DNA from: Parachlamydiales bacterium
GTDB taxonomy: Bacteria > Chlamydiota > Chlamydiia > Chlamydiales > SM23-39
Assembly: GCA_050302075.1 (NCBI GenBank)
Contig: JBNLAH010000001.1
Location: 12,136 to 76,135, forward strand
Direction: 5' to 3'
Length of the DNA: 64,000 nt
Shown: positions 5,197 through 50,423 of the stretch, piece after piece
Layout of the letters: the number at the start of each line of letters is the position of its first letter
Position numbering within the stretch: position 1 is the stretch's first letter
Position numbers and translations under genes: made by a program
The notes under the pieces: generated by a model
The model's database searches: none
Seen by the model: only the letters and a program-made list of their open reading frames with translations
Told to the model about the DNA's origin: nothing

Positions 5197-6504
5197 ATGA
5201 GTACAATTTTCCTAATATCCTCGATTTTTAAAATAAGTATGTTTGCAGTTCTGGCATTTGCTTTAATTGGAGCTGCTTTATCATCAATGATTTTAATCAC
5301 TCGTAATAAATTAATTGGCTTTAAGCCTTGCAAGATCTTAATAAATGAAGATGAAAATCTTACAAAGACAGCTAAGACTGGTTCGACTCTTTTAGAGGCT
5401 CTGCTTACAAATGGCATCTCAGTACCATCGCCTTGCGGAGGAAAAGCAACATGCAAGCAGTGCAAAGTACAAGTACTTAAAGGAGGGGGAGACCCATTAG
5501 AGACAGATAAATCAACATTTACACACCACGAACTTAAAGAAGGCTGGAGGCTATCTTGCCAATGTAAGGTAAAAAATGATATTTCAGTGCATATTCCGGA
5601 AGATCTGCTTGAGGTCAGGGAGTTTGAAGGAGTTGTAGTTAGCAATGAAAATGTATCCTCGTTTATTAAAGAGCTAGTTGTAGAAGTTGCAATGGACGAG
5701 GTAGTTGATTATAAATCAGGGGGTTATTTACAGTTTCATGTCCCTCCTTACAAAACAAATACAAGTGATTGGAAACAGACGATGGACCCAATCTATTACC
5801 CTGAATGGGAAAAGTATAAAATGTTTGGAATTGACATAGATAATTCAAAACCAGTAGAGGCTGTTCAACGCGCTTATTCAATGGCGTCATATCCTGGTGA
5901 GAAAAATATTTTAAAGTTTACTATACGTATTGCTACTCCGCCTATAGTAAAGGGCGCCCCGTTAAATAAACCTTGGGGAATCTGCTCTTCTTATGTTTTT
6001 TCTTTGAAAAAAGGCGATAAGGTTAAATTTTCAGGCCCTTATGGTGAGTCTTTTATGATAGAAGACGGCAGAGAACTTGTTTTCTTGATTGGGGGAGCTG
6101 GAGCCTCATTCGGACGGTCCCACATTATGCAACTGTTTAAAACTGAAATGACTAAAAGAAAAGTAACTCTCTGGTATGGAGCTCGCTCTTTAAGAGAGAA
6201 TATCTATCAAGAAGAATTCGAAGCGCTTGATAAGGAATTTGAAAACTTTAAGTATTACCTTGTTTTGTCTGAGCCGACTGAAGAAGACTATAAACAAGGG
6301 TGGCCTAAAAAAGAAGATGATCCTGTTCATACAAACTTTGTGTTCAAGGCTTTTGAAATTGGTCAACTAAGTAAAATGAAAGAACCTGATGAAGCGCTTT
6401 ACTATGTATGTGGTCCTCCAATGCACAATGCCAGTGTGATGAAACTTCTGGACGATTATGGTGTTCCAAGAGAAAATATTGTCTTGGATGATTTTGGAAG
6501 TTAA
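5197..6504 (+). CDS. nqrF: Na+-translocating NADH:quinone oxidoreductase subunit F
   Basis: N-terminal TM helix, 2Fe-2S ferredoxin cysteines (CGGKATCKQCKV...C), FAD motif RAYSMASYP, and a C-terminal NAD-binding domain ending YVCGPP. Confidence 0.93.
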   Translation: MSTIFLISSIFKISMFAVLAFALIGAALSSMILITRNKLIGFKPCKILINEDENLTKTAKTGSTLLEALLTNGISVPSPCGGKATCKQCKVQVLKGGGDPLETDKSTFTHHELKEGWRLSCQCKVKNDISVHIPEDLLEVREFEGVVVSNENVSSFIKELVVEVAMDEVVDYKSGGYLQFHVPPYKTNTSDWKQTMDPIYYPEWEKYKMFGIDIDNSKPVEAVQRAYSMASYPGEKNILKFTIRIATPPIVKGAPLNKPWGICSSYVFSLKKGDKVKFSGPYGESFMIEDGRELVFLIGGAGASFGRSHIMQLFKTEMTKRKVTLWYGARSLRENIYQEEFEALDKEFENFKYYLVLSEPTEEDYKQGWPKKEDDPVHTNFVFKAFEIGQLSKMKEPDEALYYVCGPPMHNASVMKLLDDYGVPRENIVLDDFGS

Positions 6505-45782: not shown

Positions 45783-45920
45783 ATGAACTCATTAATACCA
45801 TCAATCATCACTATTATTGCAGGACTTGCGATTTTAATTTTTCCAAGGCTTTTAAGCTATATCGTAGCGTTTTATTTAATTATTGTAGGAATTTTGGAGC
45901 TGGTAACTAGACTGAGCTAG
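45783..45920 (+). CDS. small 2-TM membrane protein (DUF3096-like), not in the ORF track
   Basis: AAGGAGGA Shine-Dalgarno 4 nt before the ATG. MNSLIPSIITIIAGLAILIFPRLLSYIVAFYLIIVGILELVTRLS* matches the pattern I recall for DUF3096 peptides (...aGilILifPrll.yivA.yLIivGil.l). Confidence 0.6.
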   Translation: MNSLIPSIITIIAGLAILIFPRLLSYIVAFYLIIVGILELVTRLS

Positions 45921-47515
45921 TGATGCTTTCTTTTTTCTTCGGTAGTTTTTATTTGTTCTTTAAGCTTTGGAAAATTTGCAATTAAAGCGCCAAAGTCACT
46001 TTTTCTGATAGCTAAGATATCAGCAGGATCTATGCATTTGACTGTGGCGTTTCTTCTTTTTTCATTCAAAAGAGACATCTCTCCAAAGAATTCTCCTTCC
46101 CCTAAAAATGTTACGTGAACATCTTCTTCTAGTTTTTTCTTCAGTATTTCTACTTTTCCTTTAACAATAATATAAAGATAGTCACCAACATCACCTTCGT
46201 TGAAAATAATATCGCCCGGTTCAAAATGAAGAGAGTTAATTCCTTGAGAGGGTGATAACTTTAGCTGCACCGCTTCTATTGGAATAATCATATCTAGAAA
46301 CCAAGACAAAGCAACTTTAATTTTTCTATCGAATCCTGGGAGTTTAATCCAATAGATGACACGCCACATTAACCAAGCAAGAAAGCCTGATACTTTTAAA
46401 AATCCAAATAGTTCAGCTACAGCGCTATGGTGCCCTAAAGCCCCAAGCATCCCTAAGCTTTTAAAGCAGAACTTGTTTTTTGTTTTACCTTTAATTTCAG
46501 CTACAATGTTTTTTGCTAAAGTTTTTGCCTCTCTAATTGCAAACTGAGCAGTGGGAGGGCATATGCTACCTGTCTCTACATCAGGGATATGAGCGCAGTC
46601 ACCAATTGCCCAAATATTATTAGTTCCTTGGACTTGCAGTGTTGGCTCAGTAATGATTTTTCCCTTTTCTTGTGGCAAGTTGAGAGCTTCAATTAAAGGA
46701 TTAGGTGAAGATGGGACAGTGGATATAATGGTTTTGCTTTTTATTCTTGTCCCATCATCTAATAAAGCACCCTCAGGAGTGGCTGTTGCAAGCCTTTTAT
46801 TAAAGATAATATTCAACCCTCTTTTTTGTAGGATTTTTCCAGCATAAATGCTTAAGCTTTCGCTAAGCTCCTTTTCAAGTAAGCGTTCTTTGCTGTGAAC
46901 TAAGTATACTTTGATATCTTTTTTGTCGATGGTTGGAAATTTTTTTGCAAGGTTGTACACCAGGTCATTTATCTCGGCTGCAATTTCTGTTCCTGAAAAA
47001 CCTCCTCCTGCAATTAAGTATGTTAAAAGAGATTTTTTTAGTATGGGATCTTCTTCAATAGATGCGGCTTCTATTGTATCTATGATATGATTTCTGATCC
47101 TAAGTGCATCGGATAAGTTTTTAAAAGGAAGGGCGTGCTCGTGGAGTCCTGGTGTCTTCCTGAAGTCAGTGACATTTCCAAGGCCAATTATCAGATGATC
47201 ATATTTAACGATGAGTGATTTGTGAGAAAACTGAGGATAAAGCTGGATTAGTTGCTTGTTTAAATCAATGGATTCAATGTCCTTTATATATAAAGTAGTT
47301 CTAGGAAGTCTTTTCCTTAGAGAGCTTACTGTGTCTATGATTCCAACAGAACCTCCAACTACCTCAGCTAACATTGGCTGATAAACAAAATAATTTTCGC
47401 GGTTGATTAGTACAATTTCATAATCGGGAATTTTACGGAGGTAGCTTTCTAAATAAGATGCTGTATAAACTCCACCAAATCCACCACCTAGGATTACTAT
47501 TTTCTTTTTGCTCAT
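45917..47515 (-). CDS. ndh: type II NADH dehydrogenase (NDH-2) with a C-terminal cyclic-nucleotide-binding domain
   Basis: Two dinucleotide folds (KIVILGGGFGGVYTA and YLIAGGGFSGTEIAAE), IWAIGDCA, and a membrane-anchoring helix region (GFLAWLMWRVIYWIKLPGF). Residues of about 425-515 form a CAP-family cNMP domain (FEPGDIIFNEGDVGDYLYIIVKGKVEI...FFGEMSLLNEKRRNATVKC). Confidence 0.85.
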   Translation of the reverse strand: MSKKKIVILGGGFGGVYTASYLESYLRKIPDYEIVLINRENYFVYQPMLAEVVGGSVGIIDTVSSLRKRLPRTTLYIKDIESIDLNKQLIQLYPQFSHKSLIVKYDHLIIGLGNVTDFRKTPGLHEHALPFKNLSDALRIRNHIIDTIEAASIEEDPILKKSLLTYLIAGGGFSGTEIAAEINDLVYNLAKKFPTIDKKDIKVYLVHSKERLLEKELSESLSIYAGKILQKRGLNIIFNKRLATATPEGALLDDGTRIKSKTIISTVPSSPNPLIEALNLPQEKGKIITEPTLQVQGTNNIWAIGDCAHIPDVETGSICPPTAQFAIREAKTLAKNIVAEIKGKTKNKFCFKSLGMLGALGHHSAVAELFGFLKVSGFLAWLMWRVIYWIKLPGFDRKIKVALSWFLDMIIPIEAVQLKLSPSQGINSLHFEPGDIIFNEGDVGDYLYIIVKGKVEILKKKLEEDVHVTFLGEGEFFGEMSLLNEKRRNATVKCIDPADILAIRKSDFGALIANFPKLKEQIKTTEEKRKHH

Positions 47516-47590: not shown

Positions 47591-48208
47591 ATGGAGAGGA
47601 AATTAATGAAAGAAGGATCTGTGCAAATAAAAAAGTTTCAAAAATTAAATCGCGAATACACACCTTTTTCTTACTTTGGTAATCGCAAAGAAGAAGAGGA
47701 GTTCCAAAAGTATTGGAAAAGATATTCTAAGCGAATGATAGAAAATCAAGCTGAAAGCTTGGTAAAAAAAATGAAAAAGTTATTTTCAGAAATCAAAAAA
47801 AACGGAAATGACGATAGATATGTAGAAAACTTAATTATTAAAAAAGTGAGTGATGTTAAAGGGTTTGGAGTTTTCGCCAAGGATAAAATCCCTAAAAACA
47901 CAATTATAACACATTATGCTGGTATAATTAGAAAAGATGTTGGTTCTTGGGGTAAAAACAACCGCTATGTATTTGGTTTCACCGGTACGAAAAAATTGGA
48001 GGACTGGGTCATTGATGCGGAAAAAGTATGTAATCTAGCATCCTTCATGAACCATTCAAGTCACCCAAATGTTGAAGCCGTAGAATACTATGAAGAAGAT
48101 GGCCCTAAAGTCGTCTTTAAAACAATAGCTGAAGTATCTCCAAATGAGGAATTAGTCTACGATTATGGTAAAGAATATTGGGAAGGCCTTAAGGAAGAAC
48201 CGGAGTAA
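47591..48208 (+). CDS. SET-domain protein lysine methyltransferase
   Basis: GFGVFAKDKIPKNTIITHYAGII, NHSSHPNVEAV and EELVYDYG are the canonical SET motifs. Confidence 0.85.
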   Translation: MERKLMKEGSVQIKKFQKLNREYTPFSYFGNRKEEEEFQKYWKRYSKRMIENQAESLVKKMKKLFSEIKKNGNDDRYVENLIIKKVSDVKGFGVFAKDKIPKNTIITHYAGIIRKDVGSWGKNNRYVFGFTGTKKLEDWVIDAEKVCNLASFMNHSSHPNVEAVEYYEEDGPKVVFKTIAEVSPNEELVYDYGKEYWEGLKEEPE

Positions 48209-48210
48209 CT

Positions 48211-48675
48211 ATGCTTAATTTTGTAGCAGTCCGTCATGGAGAGGCCAATGAAATTGGATTCTTCAATAAGAAAAAGAACTTATCATCTCATGGAATAGAA
48301 CAAGTTAGGAACACTGCAAACCTTTTAAAAGGCAACGACCTATTTCCGAGCATAATCTATACTTCGCCTAAGCTTAGAGCAGTCGAGACAGCCGATATTC
48401 TTCAAGAGGTATTAGCTGGAAATATTTTTGAAGAAAATGCCTTATGCGAGCCGTTTGACTCAAATAAGTTATTAGATATTTTAGCAGACTATTCTAATGA
48501 TAAAAGCACTGTTTTCTTTGTCGGACATGCTCCTACTCTTGCAGAATTCGTCAATGATCTTGTTGGTAAAAATGTTTTAGAAAAAGGATTACCTAAAGGT
48601 AGCGCAGCTCTAGTCACTTTTAAGAGCTCTGTAGAGTTCGGAAAAGGGATTTTTCAAAAATTGTTCCAAAAATAA
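48211..48675 (+). CDS. sixA: phosphohistidine phosphatase SixA
   Basis: Histidine-phosphatase RHG motif (AVRHGEA), a second His (FFVGHAPTL), and small size (154 aa). Starts 2 nt after the SET gene. Confidence 0.75.
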   Translation: MLNFVAVRHGEANEIGFFNKKKNLSSHGIEQVRNTANLLKGNDLFPSIIYTSPKLRAVETADILQEVLAGNIFEENALCEPFDSNKLLDILADYSNDKSTVFFVGHAPTLAEFVNDLVGKNVLEKGLPKGSAALVTFKSSVEFGKGIFQKLFQK

Positions 48676-48732
48676 CTACCAATAAAATTTTACTTTCGTC
48701 CAAAATATAGCTAATTTTAAATAGGTTTAGTT

Positions 48733-49092
48733 ATGAGATTTACGGAGTCCCATGAGTGGATTAATTTAAATGATAATGTTGGCTTTGTTGGAATTACAGA
48801 TTTTGCAAGAAATGAATTAGGCGAGATTGTTTATATTGAGCTTCCAAAAATAGGAGATGAGGTTAACGCTGGAGACGAAGTATGTGTATTGGAGTCAACA
48901 AAAGCTGCATCTGATGTATATAGTCCAGTTAGTGGAAAAATTATTGAGGTTAATGAAGCTTTGCTAAAGCAAGTAGATATTATTAATGAGTCAGCAGAGG
49001 ATAAAGGATGGCTTTTTAAGATCGAGCTCTCAAATCCCAGAGAAGTAAAAGGACTGCTTGATCTGAATGAATATACTAATCTAATTGACTAA
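48733..49092 (+). CDS. gcvH: glycine cleavage system H protein / lipoyl carrier
   Basis: SHEWI, and the lipoyl-lysine motif VLESTKAASDVYSPVSGKI. Confidence 0.92.
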   Translation: MRFTESHEWINLNDNVGFVGITDFARNELGEIVYIELPKIGDEVNAGDEVCVLESTKAASDVYSPVSGKIIEVNEALLKQVDIINESAEDKGWLFKIELSNPREVKGLLDLNEYTNLID

Positions 49093-49793
49093 GGCTGTCC
49101 GCCCAAATCCTCTAAAGATTCACTTGGTGGAAAATCGCTTTCTAATTGATCTAGGTTTATTCCAGTTAAAGCCAAAAAGCCGATAGCCATTAATCCAGTT
49201 GTAATAAAAGTAATTCCCATCCCTTTTAGTTTTGGAACAATATCCGCATATTTTAGCTTTTCTCTAATGGAAGCAATTAGTGCAATTGCCAGCCACCAAC
49301 CTATCCCTGAACCAAATACATATACAATATTTGCAACAAATGGATAGTTTCTAGTAGTTGCAAATAAAGAAGCTCCTAAAATTGCACAATTTACTGTAAT
49401 TAAAGGGAGGTAAACACCCAAAGCGGTGTATAAAGCCGGGGAGAATTTATCAATCACTATTTCAAGGACTTGCACAAATGCCGCAATTACTGAAATATAG
49501 ATCAAAAGTTCTAGAAAATTTAAGTTTACCCCCTGGGCATTTATTCCTAAATACGATAACCAGCTAAGGGCATTAGGGCCAGTGATAAAATGATTTACAA
49601 ACCAGTTCAAGATTCCTGATATTGTTATAACAAAAGTTACAGCTTTCCCAAGTCCATTAGCTGTGGACATCTTATTAGAACAAGCAAGATATGAGCACAT
49701 TCCAAGAAAGTAAAAAAGTAAGATATTTTGGACAAAGATGGACTGGATGAGCAATCCAATTAAATTCATAAATGAGTAATTTCCTATCCACAT
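49089..49793 (-). CDS. nqrE: Na+-NQR subunit E
   Basis: QNILLFYFLGMCSYLACSNKMSTANGLGKAVTFV matches the NqrE/RnfA signature. Six TM segments. Confidence 0.9.
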   Translation of the reverse strand: MWIGNYSFMNLIGLLIQSIFVQNILLFYFLGMCSYLACSNKMSTANGLGKAVTFVITISGILNWFVNHFITGPNALSWLSYLGINAQGVNLNFLELLIYISVIAAFVQVLEIVIDKFSPALYTALGVYLPLITVNCAILGASLFATTRNYPFVANIVYVFGSGIGWWLAIALIASIREKLKYADIVPKLKGMGITFITTGLMAIGFLALTGINLDQLESDFPPSESLEDLGGQP

Positions 49794-49796
49794 AAA

Positions 49797-50423
49797 CTAT
49801 AACCTTTTTTCATTAATGATATTAGCAATCCATATGAACCCGCCTAAAATAAAAAACGCAGCGGGAGCCAATGGCATAAGACCAAAGTTTACGTACCCAC
49901 CTGGATTTTCAGCTGTTGCATACCAGCTTAATGGAATAATTTGAAAACCGAAAAAAGACCCAAATCCAAATATTTCTCGAATAGCTCCAACAGCTATAAT
50001 CACATAACCATAACCGAGTCCTGCAGAAAGGCCATCTAGAAAAGCTGGAATTGGTGAGACATTTTTAGCCATGCTTTCAGCTCTTCCCATTACTAGACAG
50101 TTTGTAATGATCAATCCTACAAAGACGGACAAAACTTTAGACATTTCATAAAAAAATGCCTTAAGAAATTGATCAACAATGATTACAAATAAAGAAATTA
50201 TCGCAAGCTGGGCAATCATTCGGACATTGTCTGGAGTGATTTTTCTAATTAAAGAAACAAAAAAACTAGAAAAAGCTGTTACAAATGAAACGGCTAAAGC
50301 CATAGTTAATGCAACTTGCACTTTGACAGTAACAGCCAAAGCCGAGCAAATTCCTAAAATTGCTACCAATATCTGGTTGTTCCTCCACAGAGGATCTAAA
50401 AAAAAGGAGCGGTATTTTTTCAT
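49797..50423 (-). CDS. nqrD: Na+-NQR subunit D
   Basis: [22 protein letters not shown] matches the NqrD/RnfE signature. Confidence 0.9.

Follow-up and report, generated by a model that had tools for sequence, protein, structure and literature searches.

The fusion gene and its locus

The window (the whole 64-kb stretch of DNA that was analysed, from an environmental chlamydia) contains on its reverse strand a complete gene in which an oxidoreductase of the NDH-2 family is joined to a C-terminal cyclic-nucleotide-binding (CNB) domain, and it also contains the Na+-NQR genes nqrB-E and an nqrF-like gene, as the original prediction had noted (Table 1). The ORF list gives the gene the extent first proposed, with an ATG start and a TAG stop codon at 45917-45919, and the motif strings that had been quoted for it were all found in the protein and mapped to window coordinates. 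The Pfam check that had been recommended was run and placed Pyr_redox_2, NDH2_C and cNMP_binding all above their Pfam cut-offs, with a cNMP_binding span (45974-46228) that agrees with the CNB span first given (45971-46243). A protein identical to the 532-aa fusion is also called on contig JBNLDT010000001.1 of GCA_050304555.1, and the identical protein is on record for three contigs. Promoter and terminator sites scanned for between 45200 and 47800 were no commoner than in shuffled sequence.

Table 1. Position, strand and basis of the features of the NDH-2-CNB gene and of the Na+-NQR genes in the window.
Feature	Position	Strand	Basis
NDH-2-CNB fusion gene, complete, 532 aa	45917..47515	(-)	ORF list; >120 same-architecture clusters
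CNB domain, residues 426-532 (beta-barrel, phosphate-binding cassette, aB/aC)	45920..46240	(-)	Pfam, AlphaFold2
Phosphate-binding cassette FGEMSLLNEKRRNATV, residues 477-492	46040..46087	(-)	Conservation
Inter-domain linker IPIEAVQLKLSPSQG, residues 411-425	46241..46285	(-)	Conserved
NDH2_C domain, residues 355-410, two interfacial/amphipathic anchor helices	46286..46453	(-)	Pfam, AlphaFold2
GD motif G305-D306 and quinone-site AQFAIR, residues 323-328	46532..46603	(-)	AQxAxR variant
Two-Rossmann-fold flavoprotein core, Pyr_redox_2, residues 5-317	46565..47503	(-)	Pfam, 118 bits (cut-off 26.1 bits)
H207-S-K-E-R211, end of strand beta2, second Rossmann fold	46883..46897	(-)	Alignment
NAD(P)H-binding GxGxxGxE with catalytic Glu, GGGFSGTE, G170-E177	46985..47008	(-)	Alignment
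FAD-binding GxGxxG, GGGFGG, G10-G15	47471..47488	(-)	G10, G12, G15 invariant (121/121)
nqrB-E	49089-52856	(-)	Na+-NQR
nqrF-like gene	5197-6504	(+)	Na+-NQR

Distribution, selection and longer architectures

The same uninterrupted architecture occurs in more than 120 homologue clusters (60-93% identity), and a survey of its taxonomic spread, which had been suggested at the outset, found a relative in 427 species genomes from several phyla, the best 80 of them all carrying full-length fusions. The concern raised with the original prediction, that a sequencing frameshift had merged two separate genes, is answered by these uninterrupted copies. Fusions are present in at least four phyla, namely Chlamydiota, Acidobacteriota, Planctomycetota and Ignavibacteria/Bacteroidota, and the identity between phyla, at 50-55%, is high. 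Of the top 150 representatives at 50% identity, about 70 carry the NDH-2-CNB architecture, and relatives also occur in thousands of metagenomic clusters. A neighbour-joining tree of the NDH-2 part, too crude to separate a single origin of the fusion from several, groups 57 of the 69 fusions together in one clade.

The core and the CNB are translated together as intact domains, and purifying selection on both is strong, with dN/dS values of 0.034 and 0.019, respectively, and with a CNB dN of about one third of that of the core in comparison with orthologues of 82% identity. Longer relatives add CBS, FHA, TPR, DoxX or aquaporin (MIP) domains and take the forms NDH-2-CNB-CBS pair, NDH-2-CNB-FHA (one to three copies), NDH-2-CNB-TPR, DoxX-NDH-2-CNB and MIP-NDH-2-CNB. 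A CBS pair was found in 10/10 tested, and one to three FHA domains and TPR also occur. All share the NDH-2-to-CNB core in one stretch (residues about 5-525, 35-52% identity) and differ in their extra sensor or membrane modules, so that the window protein is the minimal form; the addition of sensor domains to a shared core argues for a regulatory C-terminus. Tandem CNB domains were considered for relatives of about 680 aa and rejected, since Pfam identifies CBS pairs there instead.

The NDH-2 catalytic half and its electron donor

By its motifs, C-terminal domain and fold, the catalytic half is an NDH-2 of the AQxAxR subtype. In the 121-sequence alignment, G170, G171, G172, S174, G175 and E177 of the second nucleotide-binding motif are invariant, as are G305, D306, T322, A323, Q324 and R328 around the GD and quinone-site motifs; the string IWAIGDCA is present, and its GD codons lie at 46598-46603. 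The GxGxxGxE motif and the role of its Glu have been described previously, and the NDH-2 quinone-site motif can be AQxAxQ, AQxAxR or APxAxQ, with AQxAxR accounting for 15% of NDH-2s (PMC5299459). The AlphaFold2 model of the fusion protein has a mean pLDDT of 83.5, and when it was compared with the PDB using Foldseek the top 27 matches were all NDH-2 structures, the best being Caldalkalibacillus thermarum NDH-2 (4nwz; E 2e-34, TM-score 0.88 normalised to target). These features point to a monotopic membrane-surface protein with predicted NAD(P)H:quinone oxidoreductase activity.

The original description of this half as a standard NADH:quinone oxidoreductase holds for its NDH-2 identity, while the choice of NADH as donor has to be qualified. 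An acidic residue at the end of beta2 is typical of NADH-specific NDH-2s (E272 in Ndi1) and has been proposed to exclude NADPH (PMC11670749). The acidic discriminator is replaced in the fusion by an invariant His207, which aligns with E198 of 4nwz and the Asp of 9mqy and is followed by S208 and R211, both at least 90% conserved; the donor may therefore be NADPH or both nucleotides, and the fusion is possibly an NDH-2 sub-type capable of NADPH use that still belongs to the NDH-2 family. Taken further, this substitution would suit a catalytic half that is mainly an NADPH-preferring quinone reductase and not a respiratory NADH dehydrogenase, with a role in NdbB/NDC1-like reduction of naphthoquinone precursors during menaquinone synthesis, in redox balancing or in quinone detoxification. 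This is a possibility of some substance, although we judge it doubtful. A homologue of 63% identity (P0032) is named 'Demethylphylloquinone reductase NdbB' at source, but the name is an automated label; Na+-NQR is already present for NADH oxidation, yet an NDH-2 alongside a second NADH dehydrogenase is common in bacteria. A non-acidic residue is also no guarantee of NADPH use, as O. parapolymorpha Ndh2-3, with Gln at the discriminator position, oxidised NADH only (PMC11670749). An NADPH-preferring reductase would be compatible with regulation by cyclic nucleotides (cNMP) and is not exclusive of the mechanism proposed below.

Anchor helices and inter-domain linker

The Pfam match to NDH2_C covers residues 355-406 (30.6 bits against a cut-off of 27.7), and the AlphaFold2 model places the two anchor helices, which are Trp-rich or amphipathic, at residues 378-391 and 395-410, with hydrophobic moments of 0.35 and 0.54. 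The membrane-anchor helices that had been proposed are thus present but are interfacial and not transmembrane, as no transmembrane-grade segment occurs in the protein and the highest Kyte-Doolittle 19-residue window is 1.55. The linker that follows is conserved (P412, E414, V416, Q417, K419 and G425 at least 90%), and no part of the protein evolves more slowly than NDH2_C together with this linker (dN 0.017). Despite this conservation, residues 418-424 have a pLDDT below 50 in the model. The structure prediction that had been suggested for seeing how the CNB docks accordingly yielded a model of the protein, but the docking pose on the catalytic body is undefined in it because of this low linker confidence.

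The cyclic-nucleotide-binding domain

The CNB matches Pfam cNMP_binding (PF00027) with 80.3 bits from residue 430 to residue 514, taking in positions 3-88 of the 89 in the profile, and so lies far above the cut-off of 27.5, below which the original assignment was to have been abandoned. In the PDB, the sequence of this half matches the CNB domains of PKG, PKA-R and Bd1971. The eight-stranded beta-barrel and the hinge/lid helices (aB/aC) are both found in the AlphaFold2 model, with strands within residues 426-504, a phosphate-binding cassette helix at 479-483 and helices at 505-514 and 516-531. The N-terminal helical (N3A) element through which CNB domains relay the allosteric signal has no predicted helix as its counterpart here: what separates anchor helix 395-410 from strand b1, which starts at residue 426, is the conserved linker of low model confidence.

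Within the cassette, the cNMP-contacting residues F477, G478, E479, R488 and A490 show no variation among close relatives (121/121) or cross-phylum ones (136/136), and retention of the phosphate-binding Arg, which had been claimed from the single protein, therefore extends to the whole set (R488, 121/121). G478, E479, R488 and A490, the contacts to the ribose and phosphate, are equivalent to G199, E200, R209 and A211 of PKA RI-alpha, and the Gly-to-Arg spacing of 10 residues is the same as in that protein. We infer that a cyclic nucleotide is the ligand of the CNB, with cAMP the likeliest. The residue after the cassette Arg varies (S/T/L/N), and cNMP selectivity is for this reason unreadable from the sequence. 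Among divergent representatives of the family, 49 of 67 keep the cassette Arg and about a quarter are without it, so that some fusions need not bind cNMP.

Genomic neighbourhood and candidate cyclases

A cyclase, phosphodiesterase or other CNB gene was not found in the 64-kb window or its flanks by Pfam context, a tblastn search of the window with an approximate Rv1625c catalytic domain gave no cyclase, and a CNB profile run over L001, the 21.6 kb surrounding the fusion gene, detected no CNB gene besides it. In two PVC MAGs (L042 and L050), the fusion gene lies about 7 kb or less from a class III cyclase of CHASE2 + Guanylate_cyc architecture, and a CNB-Rce1-like protein is also encoded within about 7 kb; of about 58 chlamydia-like loci, only these 2 show such linkage. 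Homologous CHASE2-type cyclases are present in Rhabdochlamydiaceae and Parachlamydiales, and one contig of 95,067 bp carries both a cyclase and an NDH-2-CNB gene. The cyclases retain the metal-binding Asp residues, Asn and Arg, and their substrate pair is Lys/Thr, typical of class IIIb adenylate cyclases. The linked CHASE2 class III cyclases are adenylate-cyclase-like in their residues.

Clustering of the ORFs of 80 loci revealed no conserved operon partner, none shared across phyla and none related to signalling. The commonest neighbours were EamA, MatE, MFS, MscS, transaldolase and one unannotated family, each in at most 23 of the 80 loci, and the neighbourhoods are otherwise unconserved.

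Proposed mechanism and alternatives

The best explanation, to which we give slightly better than even chances, is that the protein is an NDH-2 with a CNB tail through which binding of a cNMP (likely cAMP) modulates electron entry into the quinone pool. In this mechanism, cAMP would be supplied by a membrane class III adenylate cyclase with a CHASE2 sensor, of the kind seen in related chlamydial and PVC genomes. The last anchor helix continues through the conserved 15-residue linker into a canonical CNB, and nucleotide binding would move the hinge/lid helices (aB/aC) and the linker, a movement that could act on the adjacent C-terminal anchor helices. Since in known NDH-2s these helices form part of the quinone site and of the membrane attachment, a change in them may alter how fast electrons pass into the quinone pool in parallel with Na+-NQR. 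If other CNB-regulated enzymes are a guide, the apo CNB is probably autoinhibitory and is relieved by the activating nucleotide, but this direction of control is a guess. Control by cNMP gains support from the invariance of the ligand-contact residues in the fusion, from the strong purifying selection on the CNB and from the linkage of a class III cyclase in related genomes, and direct second-messenger control of electron entry to the quinone pool, as originally suggested, is a well-motivated hypothesis.

The CNB may instead bind cNMP without gating catalysis and control membrane attachment or release, oligomeric state, placement or partner recruitment, which we consider unlikely. The position of the CNB directly after the anchor helices, the slow evolution of NDH2_C and the linker, and the protein-interaction modules (e.g., FHA and TPR) appended in relatives would all fit such a role. 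Against it, no conserved partner gene lies beside the fusion, and changes in attachment and in catalysis are hard to separate where the anchor helices help to form the quinone site.

It is less probable still that the C-terminal CNB fold binds another ligand or none and acts as a structural or dimerisation element, as might be suggested by the haem, 2-oxoglutarate and redox sensors of the CRP/FNR group. Adaptation of the fold to ligands that are not cNMP has been documented (Kannan et al., 2007), and both the absence of the cassette Arg from some divergent representatives and the lack of a cyclase in the window are compatible with this. Against this stand the Gly-Glu ... Arg-x-Ala set, invariant and canonically spaced throughout the clade, the low dN/dS of the CNB, and the class III cyclases of related Chlamydiota, some of them adjacent to the fusion gene; moreover, the CNB families that sense other ligands, such as NtcA, have degenerate cassettes (Kannan et al., 2007).

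An assembly or sequencing artefact joining two separate genes has a negligible probability, as the ORF is single and unbroken, the same protein occurs on three contigs, the architecture recurs in the clusters and the 80 species genomes described above and in the complete chromosomes of Simkania, Simkaniaceae and Neptunochlamydia, and the inter-domain linker is itself conserved; the fusion is real and strongly conserved, and both chance and a sequencing frameshift are excluded.

Possible significance

Returning to cNMP control of electron entry, cAMP from a CHASE2-sensor cyclase might switch a respiratory quinone reductase directly, at the post-translational level, in environmental chlamydiae and members of several free-living phyla, a tentative proposal that we regard as having the weaker chances. 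In the general view, transcription and substrate supply are what controls bacterial respiratory dehydrogenases. A CNB sensor in NDH-2 would in addition let a second messenger adjust, quickly and directly, how electron entry is divided between the energy-conserving Na+-NQR and the non-conserving NDH-2. A signal from the envelope or the host would then determine within seconds the number of NAD(P)H electrons that avoid the Na+-pumping NQR and reach the quinone pool uncoupled. Chlamydial energy metabolism could in that case be tied to the developmental cycle or to the state of the host, and the fusion would be the first second-messenger-gated entry point into a bacterial respiratory chain. In other pathogens NDH-2 serves as a drug target, which would make a natural allosteric handle on the enzyme interesting.

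The family is large and has been missed twice, as the reference analysis of the NDH-2 family left out fused-domain proteins (PMC5299459) and the most recent reconstruction of the chlamydial respiratory chain mentions neither NDH-2 nor cyclic nucleotides (PMC9816063). Literature searches found nothing relevant on chlamydial cAMP or CHASE2 signalling and no biochemical evidence for cNMP switching of an NDH-2-CNB protein, and in agreement with the original prediction, which knew of no characterised example, they gave none either.

Comparison with known systems

The architecture class has already been catalogued and is listed in databases, as the original prediction had allowed for: a UniRef homologue is named 'Cyclic nucleotide-binding domain-containing protein', and 'Bact_Pyrredox' is family 13 in Table 1 of a survey of CNB domains (Kannan et al., 2007, Genome Biol 8:R264). 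In this subfamily the CNB lies C-terminal to a pyridine nucleotide-disulphide oxidoreductase domain, an arrangement also found in the fusion, and 9/17 positions are shared between its cassette consensus GEMGLISGRRRGATVRA and the corresponding GEMSLLNEKRRNATVKC of the fusion. Bact_Pyrredox was described with tandem CNBs, whereas the window protein and 20 Pfam-scanned relatives have one, and with a CNB profile specific to the family each CNB-bearing NDH-2 representative showed one CNB region, split into two fragments in one of them (P0129). The subfamily was catalogued only, without an assigned function or a connection with NDH-2 or quinones (Kannan et al., 2007).

The solved NDH-2s (4nwz, S. 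aureus 5na1, mycobacterial 9mqy and yeast Ndi1 4g6g) have the same fold (TM-score 0.74-0.88 normalised to target) and share with the fusion the GxGxxG folds, catalytic Glu, GD motif, quinone-site motif and C-terminal amphipathic helices. The fusion differs from them in its sequence (about 26% identity), in having AQxAxR instead of AQxAxQ and His instead of the acidic discriminator, and in an extra 120 residues of linker plus CNB that are absent from every solved NDH-2; the NDH-2 matches in the PDB all end at about residue 420 of the fusion. The only NDH-2s discussed earlier as having a built-in sensor for a second messenger or small ligand, with a proposed role in regulating activity, are the EF-hand enzymes of the plant NDB1 and fungal NDE1 type, external NAD(P)H dehydrogenases of mitochondria (PMC5299459; PMC11670749). 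These are eukaryotic, some of them use NADPH as well, and their Ca2+-binding sensor interrupts the catalytic domain at a point after the GD motif and before helix a7, whereas the fusion is bacterial and its sensor is a complete C-terminal CNB. No EF-hand was found in the fusion among Pfam matches at E up to 0.1, and the segment at residues 309-321 is short.

The closest counterparts for the sensor are M. tuberculosis Pat (Rv0998) and Bdellovibrio Bd1971, in which an enzyme carries one canonical CNB in cis, as here, and to which the CNB of the fusion is related in sequence (Pat 2.4e-8, NCBIfam; Bd1971 6hq2 5e-15). In both proteins cAMP relieves autoinhibition. Their CNB stands at the N-terminus and acts on an acetyltransferase or a c-di-GMP phosphodiesterase (EAL) as output, whereas in the fusion the CNB lies C-terminal to a predicted membrane-associated respiratory flavoenzyme, which it may regulate.

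Domain architecture and spread of the fusion

The original prediction of a type II NADH:quinone oxidoreductase (NDH-2) fused to a cyclic-nucleotide-binding (CNB) domain is borne out, with Pyr_redox_2, NDH2_C, and cNMP_binding all exceeding their Pfam cut-offs in a single ORF, and the window protein genuinely belongs to both families. In a PDB sequence search, residues 1-420 match bacterial NDH-2s (C. thermarum 4nwz, 1e-37; mycobacterial 9mqy) and residues 425-530 match the CNB domains of PKG, PKA-R, Bd1971, and SthK. All motif strings quoted in the prediction were found where it had placed them, and an identical protein is annotated on the 430-kb contig JBNLDT010000001.1 of GCA_050304555.1.

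Coordinates of the features discussed
Feature	Position	Strand	Details
NDH-2-CNB gene	window 45917-47515	minus	one ORF, 532 aa, ATG start, TAG stop
Pyr_redox_2	residues 5-317		Pfam 118 bits, over curated cut-off
NDH2_C	residues 355-406		Pfam 30.6 bits vs cut-off 27.7
cNMP_binding	residues 430-514		Pfam 80.3 bits vs cut-off 27.5
H207-R211	window 46883-46897	minus	invariant His207 at acidic discriminator position, then conserved S208, R211
Inter-domain linker	residues 411-425, window 46241-46285	minus	15 residues, strongly conserved
DUF3096 ORF	window 45783-45920	plus	45 aa, hydrophobic
SET-domain, His_Phos_1 phosphatase, and gcvH genes	window 47591-49092	plus	SET-domain gene divergent from NDH-2-CNB gene, 75-bp gap
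nqrB-E	window 49089-52856	minus
1605-aa ORF	window 52967-57784	plus	beside nqrB; called as 1603 aa
nqrF-like gene	window 5197-6504	plus	Fer2 + FAD_binding_6 + NAD_binding_1
Cyclic-nucleotide (cNMP) module	L085:8792-13649; L087:8751-14135; L042:7928-14760; L050:7934-16111		related loci
MBL-fold hydrolase (Lactamase_B_2)	L042:9090-9917; L050:9096-9923	minus	between CNB-Rce1-like and NDH-2-CNB genes
Module-bearing relatives	P0122-P0124, P0135, P0141, P0144, P0148, P0138-P0208		protein representatives

The architecture is identical in all of the 120 best homologue clusters (60-93% identity), whose named entries are all Chlamydiota (Simkania, Simkaniaceae, Rhabdochlamydiaceae, and Neptunochlamydia). 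When one genome per species was scanned, 427 genomes proved to contain a relative; in the best 80 of these the match always spans residues ~1-530, and the hosts are mostly Chlamydiota, complete chromosomes among them, with Pyrinomonadaceae/Blastocatellia, Ignavibacteria/Bacteroidota, and Planctomycetaceae/Pirellulaceae also present at 50-55% identity. An assembly or frameshift artefact joining two separate genes is ruled out by the recurrence of the uninterrupted fusion in these 120 clusters and 80 species genomes. When 1.84 billion representatives clustered at 50% identity were searched exhaustively, ~70 of the top 150 consisted of NDH-2 then CNB in a single aligned stretch (30-53% identity). 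A profile from divergent fusions recovered 120 further sequences, all built in this way; some of them carry the names Terriglobales, Acidobacteria, or 'Deltaproteobacteria'. The taxonomic survey proposed with the original prediction thus places the fusion in Chlamydiota, Acidobacteriota, Planctomycetota, and Ignavibacteria/Bacteroidota. Orthologues from the latter three groups (loci L059-L084) share 50-55% identity with the chlamydial protein, an unusually high value for different phyla, which suggests that the fusion gene spread as a unit by horizontal transfer.

Catalytic half and electron donor

Both halves would be functional by all the sequence criteria applied. In an alignment of 121 close relatives, the GxGxxG motif that binds FAD, the GxGxxGxE motif that binds NAD(P)H and contains the catalytic Glu E177, the GD motif, and the quinone-site residues A323, Q324, and R328 are invariant; AQxAxR is a recognised variant of the quinone-site motif, found in 15% of NDH-2s (PMC5299459). 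The AlphaFold2 model (mean pLDDT 83.5, pTM 0.78) aligns with solved NDH-2s at TM-scores reaching 0.88 (normalised to target); it recovers the NDH-2 fold but not the docking of the CNB domain, as linker residues 418-424 have pLDDT <50 and their placement is not given by the model. Neither of the two C-terminal helices (residues 378-391 and 395-410) is transmembrane; they are Trp-rich or amphipathic, like those of known monotopic NDH-2s.

The description of this half as a standard NADH dehydrogenase stands for its motifs and fold but not for the NADH-type acidic residue, which is replaced by His207. The corresponding residue in Ndi1, E272, lies at the end of strand beta2 in the second Rossmann fold, and a role in excluding NADPH has been proposed for it (PMC11670749). 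His at this position typifies the whole subfamily around the window protein, including N-terminally extended NDH-2s such as the DoxX-fused P0177, and one homologue bears the source-given label 'NdbB'. With an invariant His in place of the acidic residue, the donor may be NADPH or both NADPH and NADH, which leaves the regulatory hypothesis unaffected.

CNB domain, linker, and added modules

The phosphate-binding Arg is retained as predicted: R488, together with the cassette residues F477, G478, E479, and A490, is invariant in 121/121 close relatives and 136/136 cross-phylum relatives, with the same spacing as G199, E200 ... R209, A211 in PKA RI-alpha. Against the 93%-identical orthologue, dN/dS is 0.034 in the core, 0.025 in NDH2_C plus linker, and 0.019 in the CNB domain, and dN against two 82% orthologues is 0.06 for the CNB domain and 0.17 for the core; the sensor is therefore constrained at least as much as the enzyme.

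The high conservation of the linker, set against its very low AlphaFold2 confidence, suggests a contact outside the monomer-in-solution model, such as one made with the membrane, across a dimer, or at the quinone tunnel. In the model the linker runs directly into the CNB barrel, for which no separate N3A helix is predicted, and the linker and last anchor helix may take over the N3A relay role. A CBS pair follows the NDH-2-CNB core in 10/10 tested relatives of ~680 aa, and other relatives add 1-3 FHA domains, TPR repeats, or, N-terminally, a DoxX or aquaporin (MIP) domain; DoxX-NDH-2 without CNB also occurs (P0177). The recurrent extra modules and the conserved linker may be counted as evidence for a regulatory C-terminus.

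Possible nucleotide source and gene neighbourhood

In the window and its flanks, Pfam annotation contained no gene for a cyclase, a phosphodiesterase, or a further CNB protein; tblastn likewise gave no cyclase match within the window, and a CNB profile found no second CNB gene in the 21.6 kb around the gene. Cyclase genes lie near the fusion gene in 5/80 related loci (tblastn, class III catalytic domain), the neighbourhood being otherwise unconserved. In loci L042 and L050, from MAGs labelled Verrucomicrobia by their submitters and with fusion proteins 59-60% identical to the query, ~7 kb hold genes for a CNB-Rce1-like membrane protease, an MBL-fold hydrolase, the NDH-2-CNB protein, and a CHASE2 + Guanylate_cyc cyclase. 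The 120 best homologues of this cyclase, among them entries from Rhabdochlamydiaceae and Parachlamydiales, all have its CHASE2-cyclase architecture. The hydrolase, in which a PDEase_II match is absent, is a possible cNMP phosphodiesterase. The cyclase adjoins CNB-Rce1-like and FecR-domain genes in two contigs (one Rhabdochlamydiaceae assembly, one metagenome), and a single 95,067-bp contig carries the cyclase at ~36-38 kb and the NDH-2-CNB gene at ~79-81 kb. The cyclases keep both metal-binding Asp residues, the transition-state Asn and Arg, and the substrate pair Lys/Thr, which marks class IIIb adenylate cyclases; this adenylate-cyclase-like pair makes cAMP the more likely ligand.

A CHASE2-sensor class III cyclase (Lys/Thr) with one or two adjacent CNB-Rce1-like (CPBP) proteases, and often a FecR-domain protein, forms a recurrent cNMP module in chlamydial/PVC genomes; it is undescribed as far as found in the literature, where our search found no paper tying CHASE2 cyclases to chlamydiae.

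The Na+-NQR reported in the same window is present as nqrB-E and, ~43 kb away, an nqrF-like gene; no nqrA was seen within the window, and no Pfam match is on record for the 1605-aa ORF. The DUF3096 ORF converges on the fusion gene with a 4-nt overlap that includes its stop codon, and a DUF3096 gene (69 aa) is called at the same position in the 93% relative, L090. The order SET-domain, His_Phos_1, gcvH is also preserved there. SET-domain proteins are known chlamydial effectors.

Comparison with known systems

As the original prediction suspected, databases already hold the architecture: a 'Bact_Pyrredox' CNB subfamily is described as a pyridine nucleotide-disulphide oxidoreductase followed by tandem CNBs (Kannan et al., 2007), and the UniRef entry of one homologue is titled 'Cyclic nucleotide-binding domain-containing protein'. 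Its author knew of no characterised example, and our literature search likewise found no functional study of NDH-2-CNB. The reference NDH-2 family analysis explicitly dropped proteins that carry a further domain fused at either terminus (PMC5299459), and a 2023 reconstruction of the chlamydial respiratory chain mentions neither NDH-2 nor cyclic nucleotides (PMC9816063). The window protein belongs to a widespread, catalogued, uncharacterised fusion family, which is large and overlooked. The mechanism with the best support is direct control of quinone reduction by a cNMP, probably cAMP; it is a proposal that we narrowly favour and that is cheap to test. Functionally, the nearest analogues of the fusion are the NDH-2s of plant and fungal mitochondria that depend on Ca2+ through an EF-hand, together with Pat (Rv0998) and Bd1971, two enzyme fusions regulated by cAMP.
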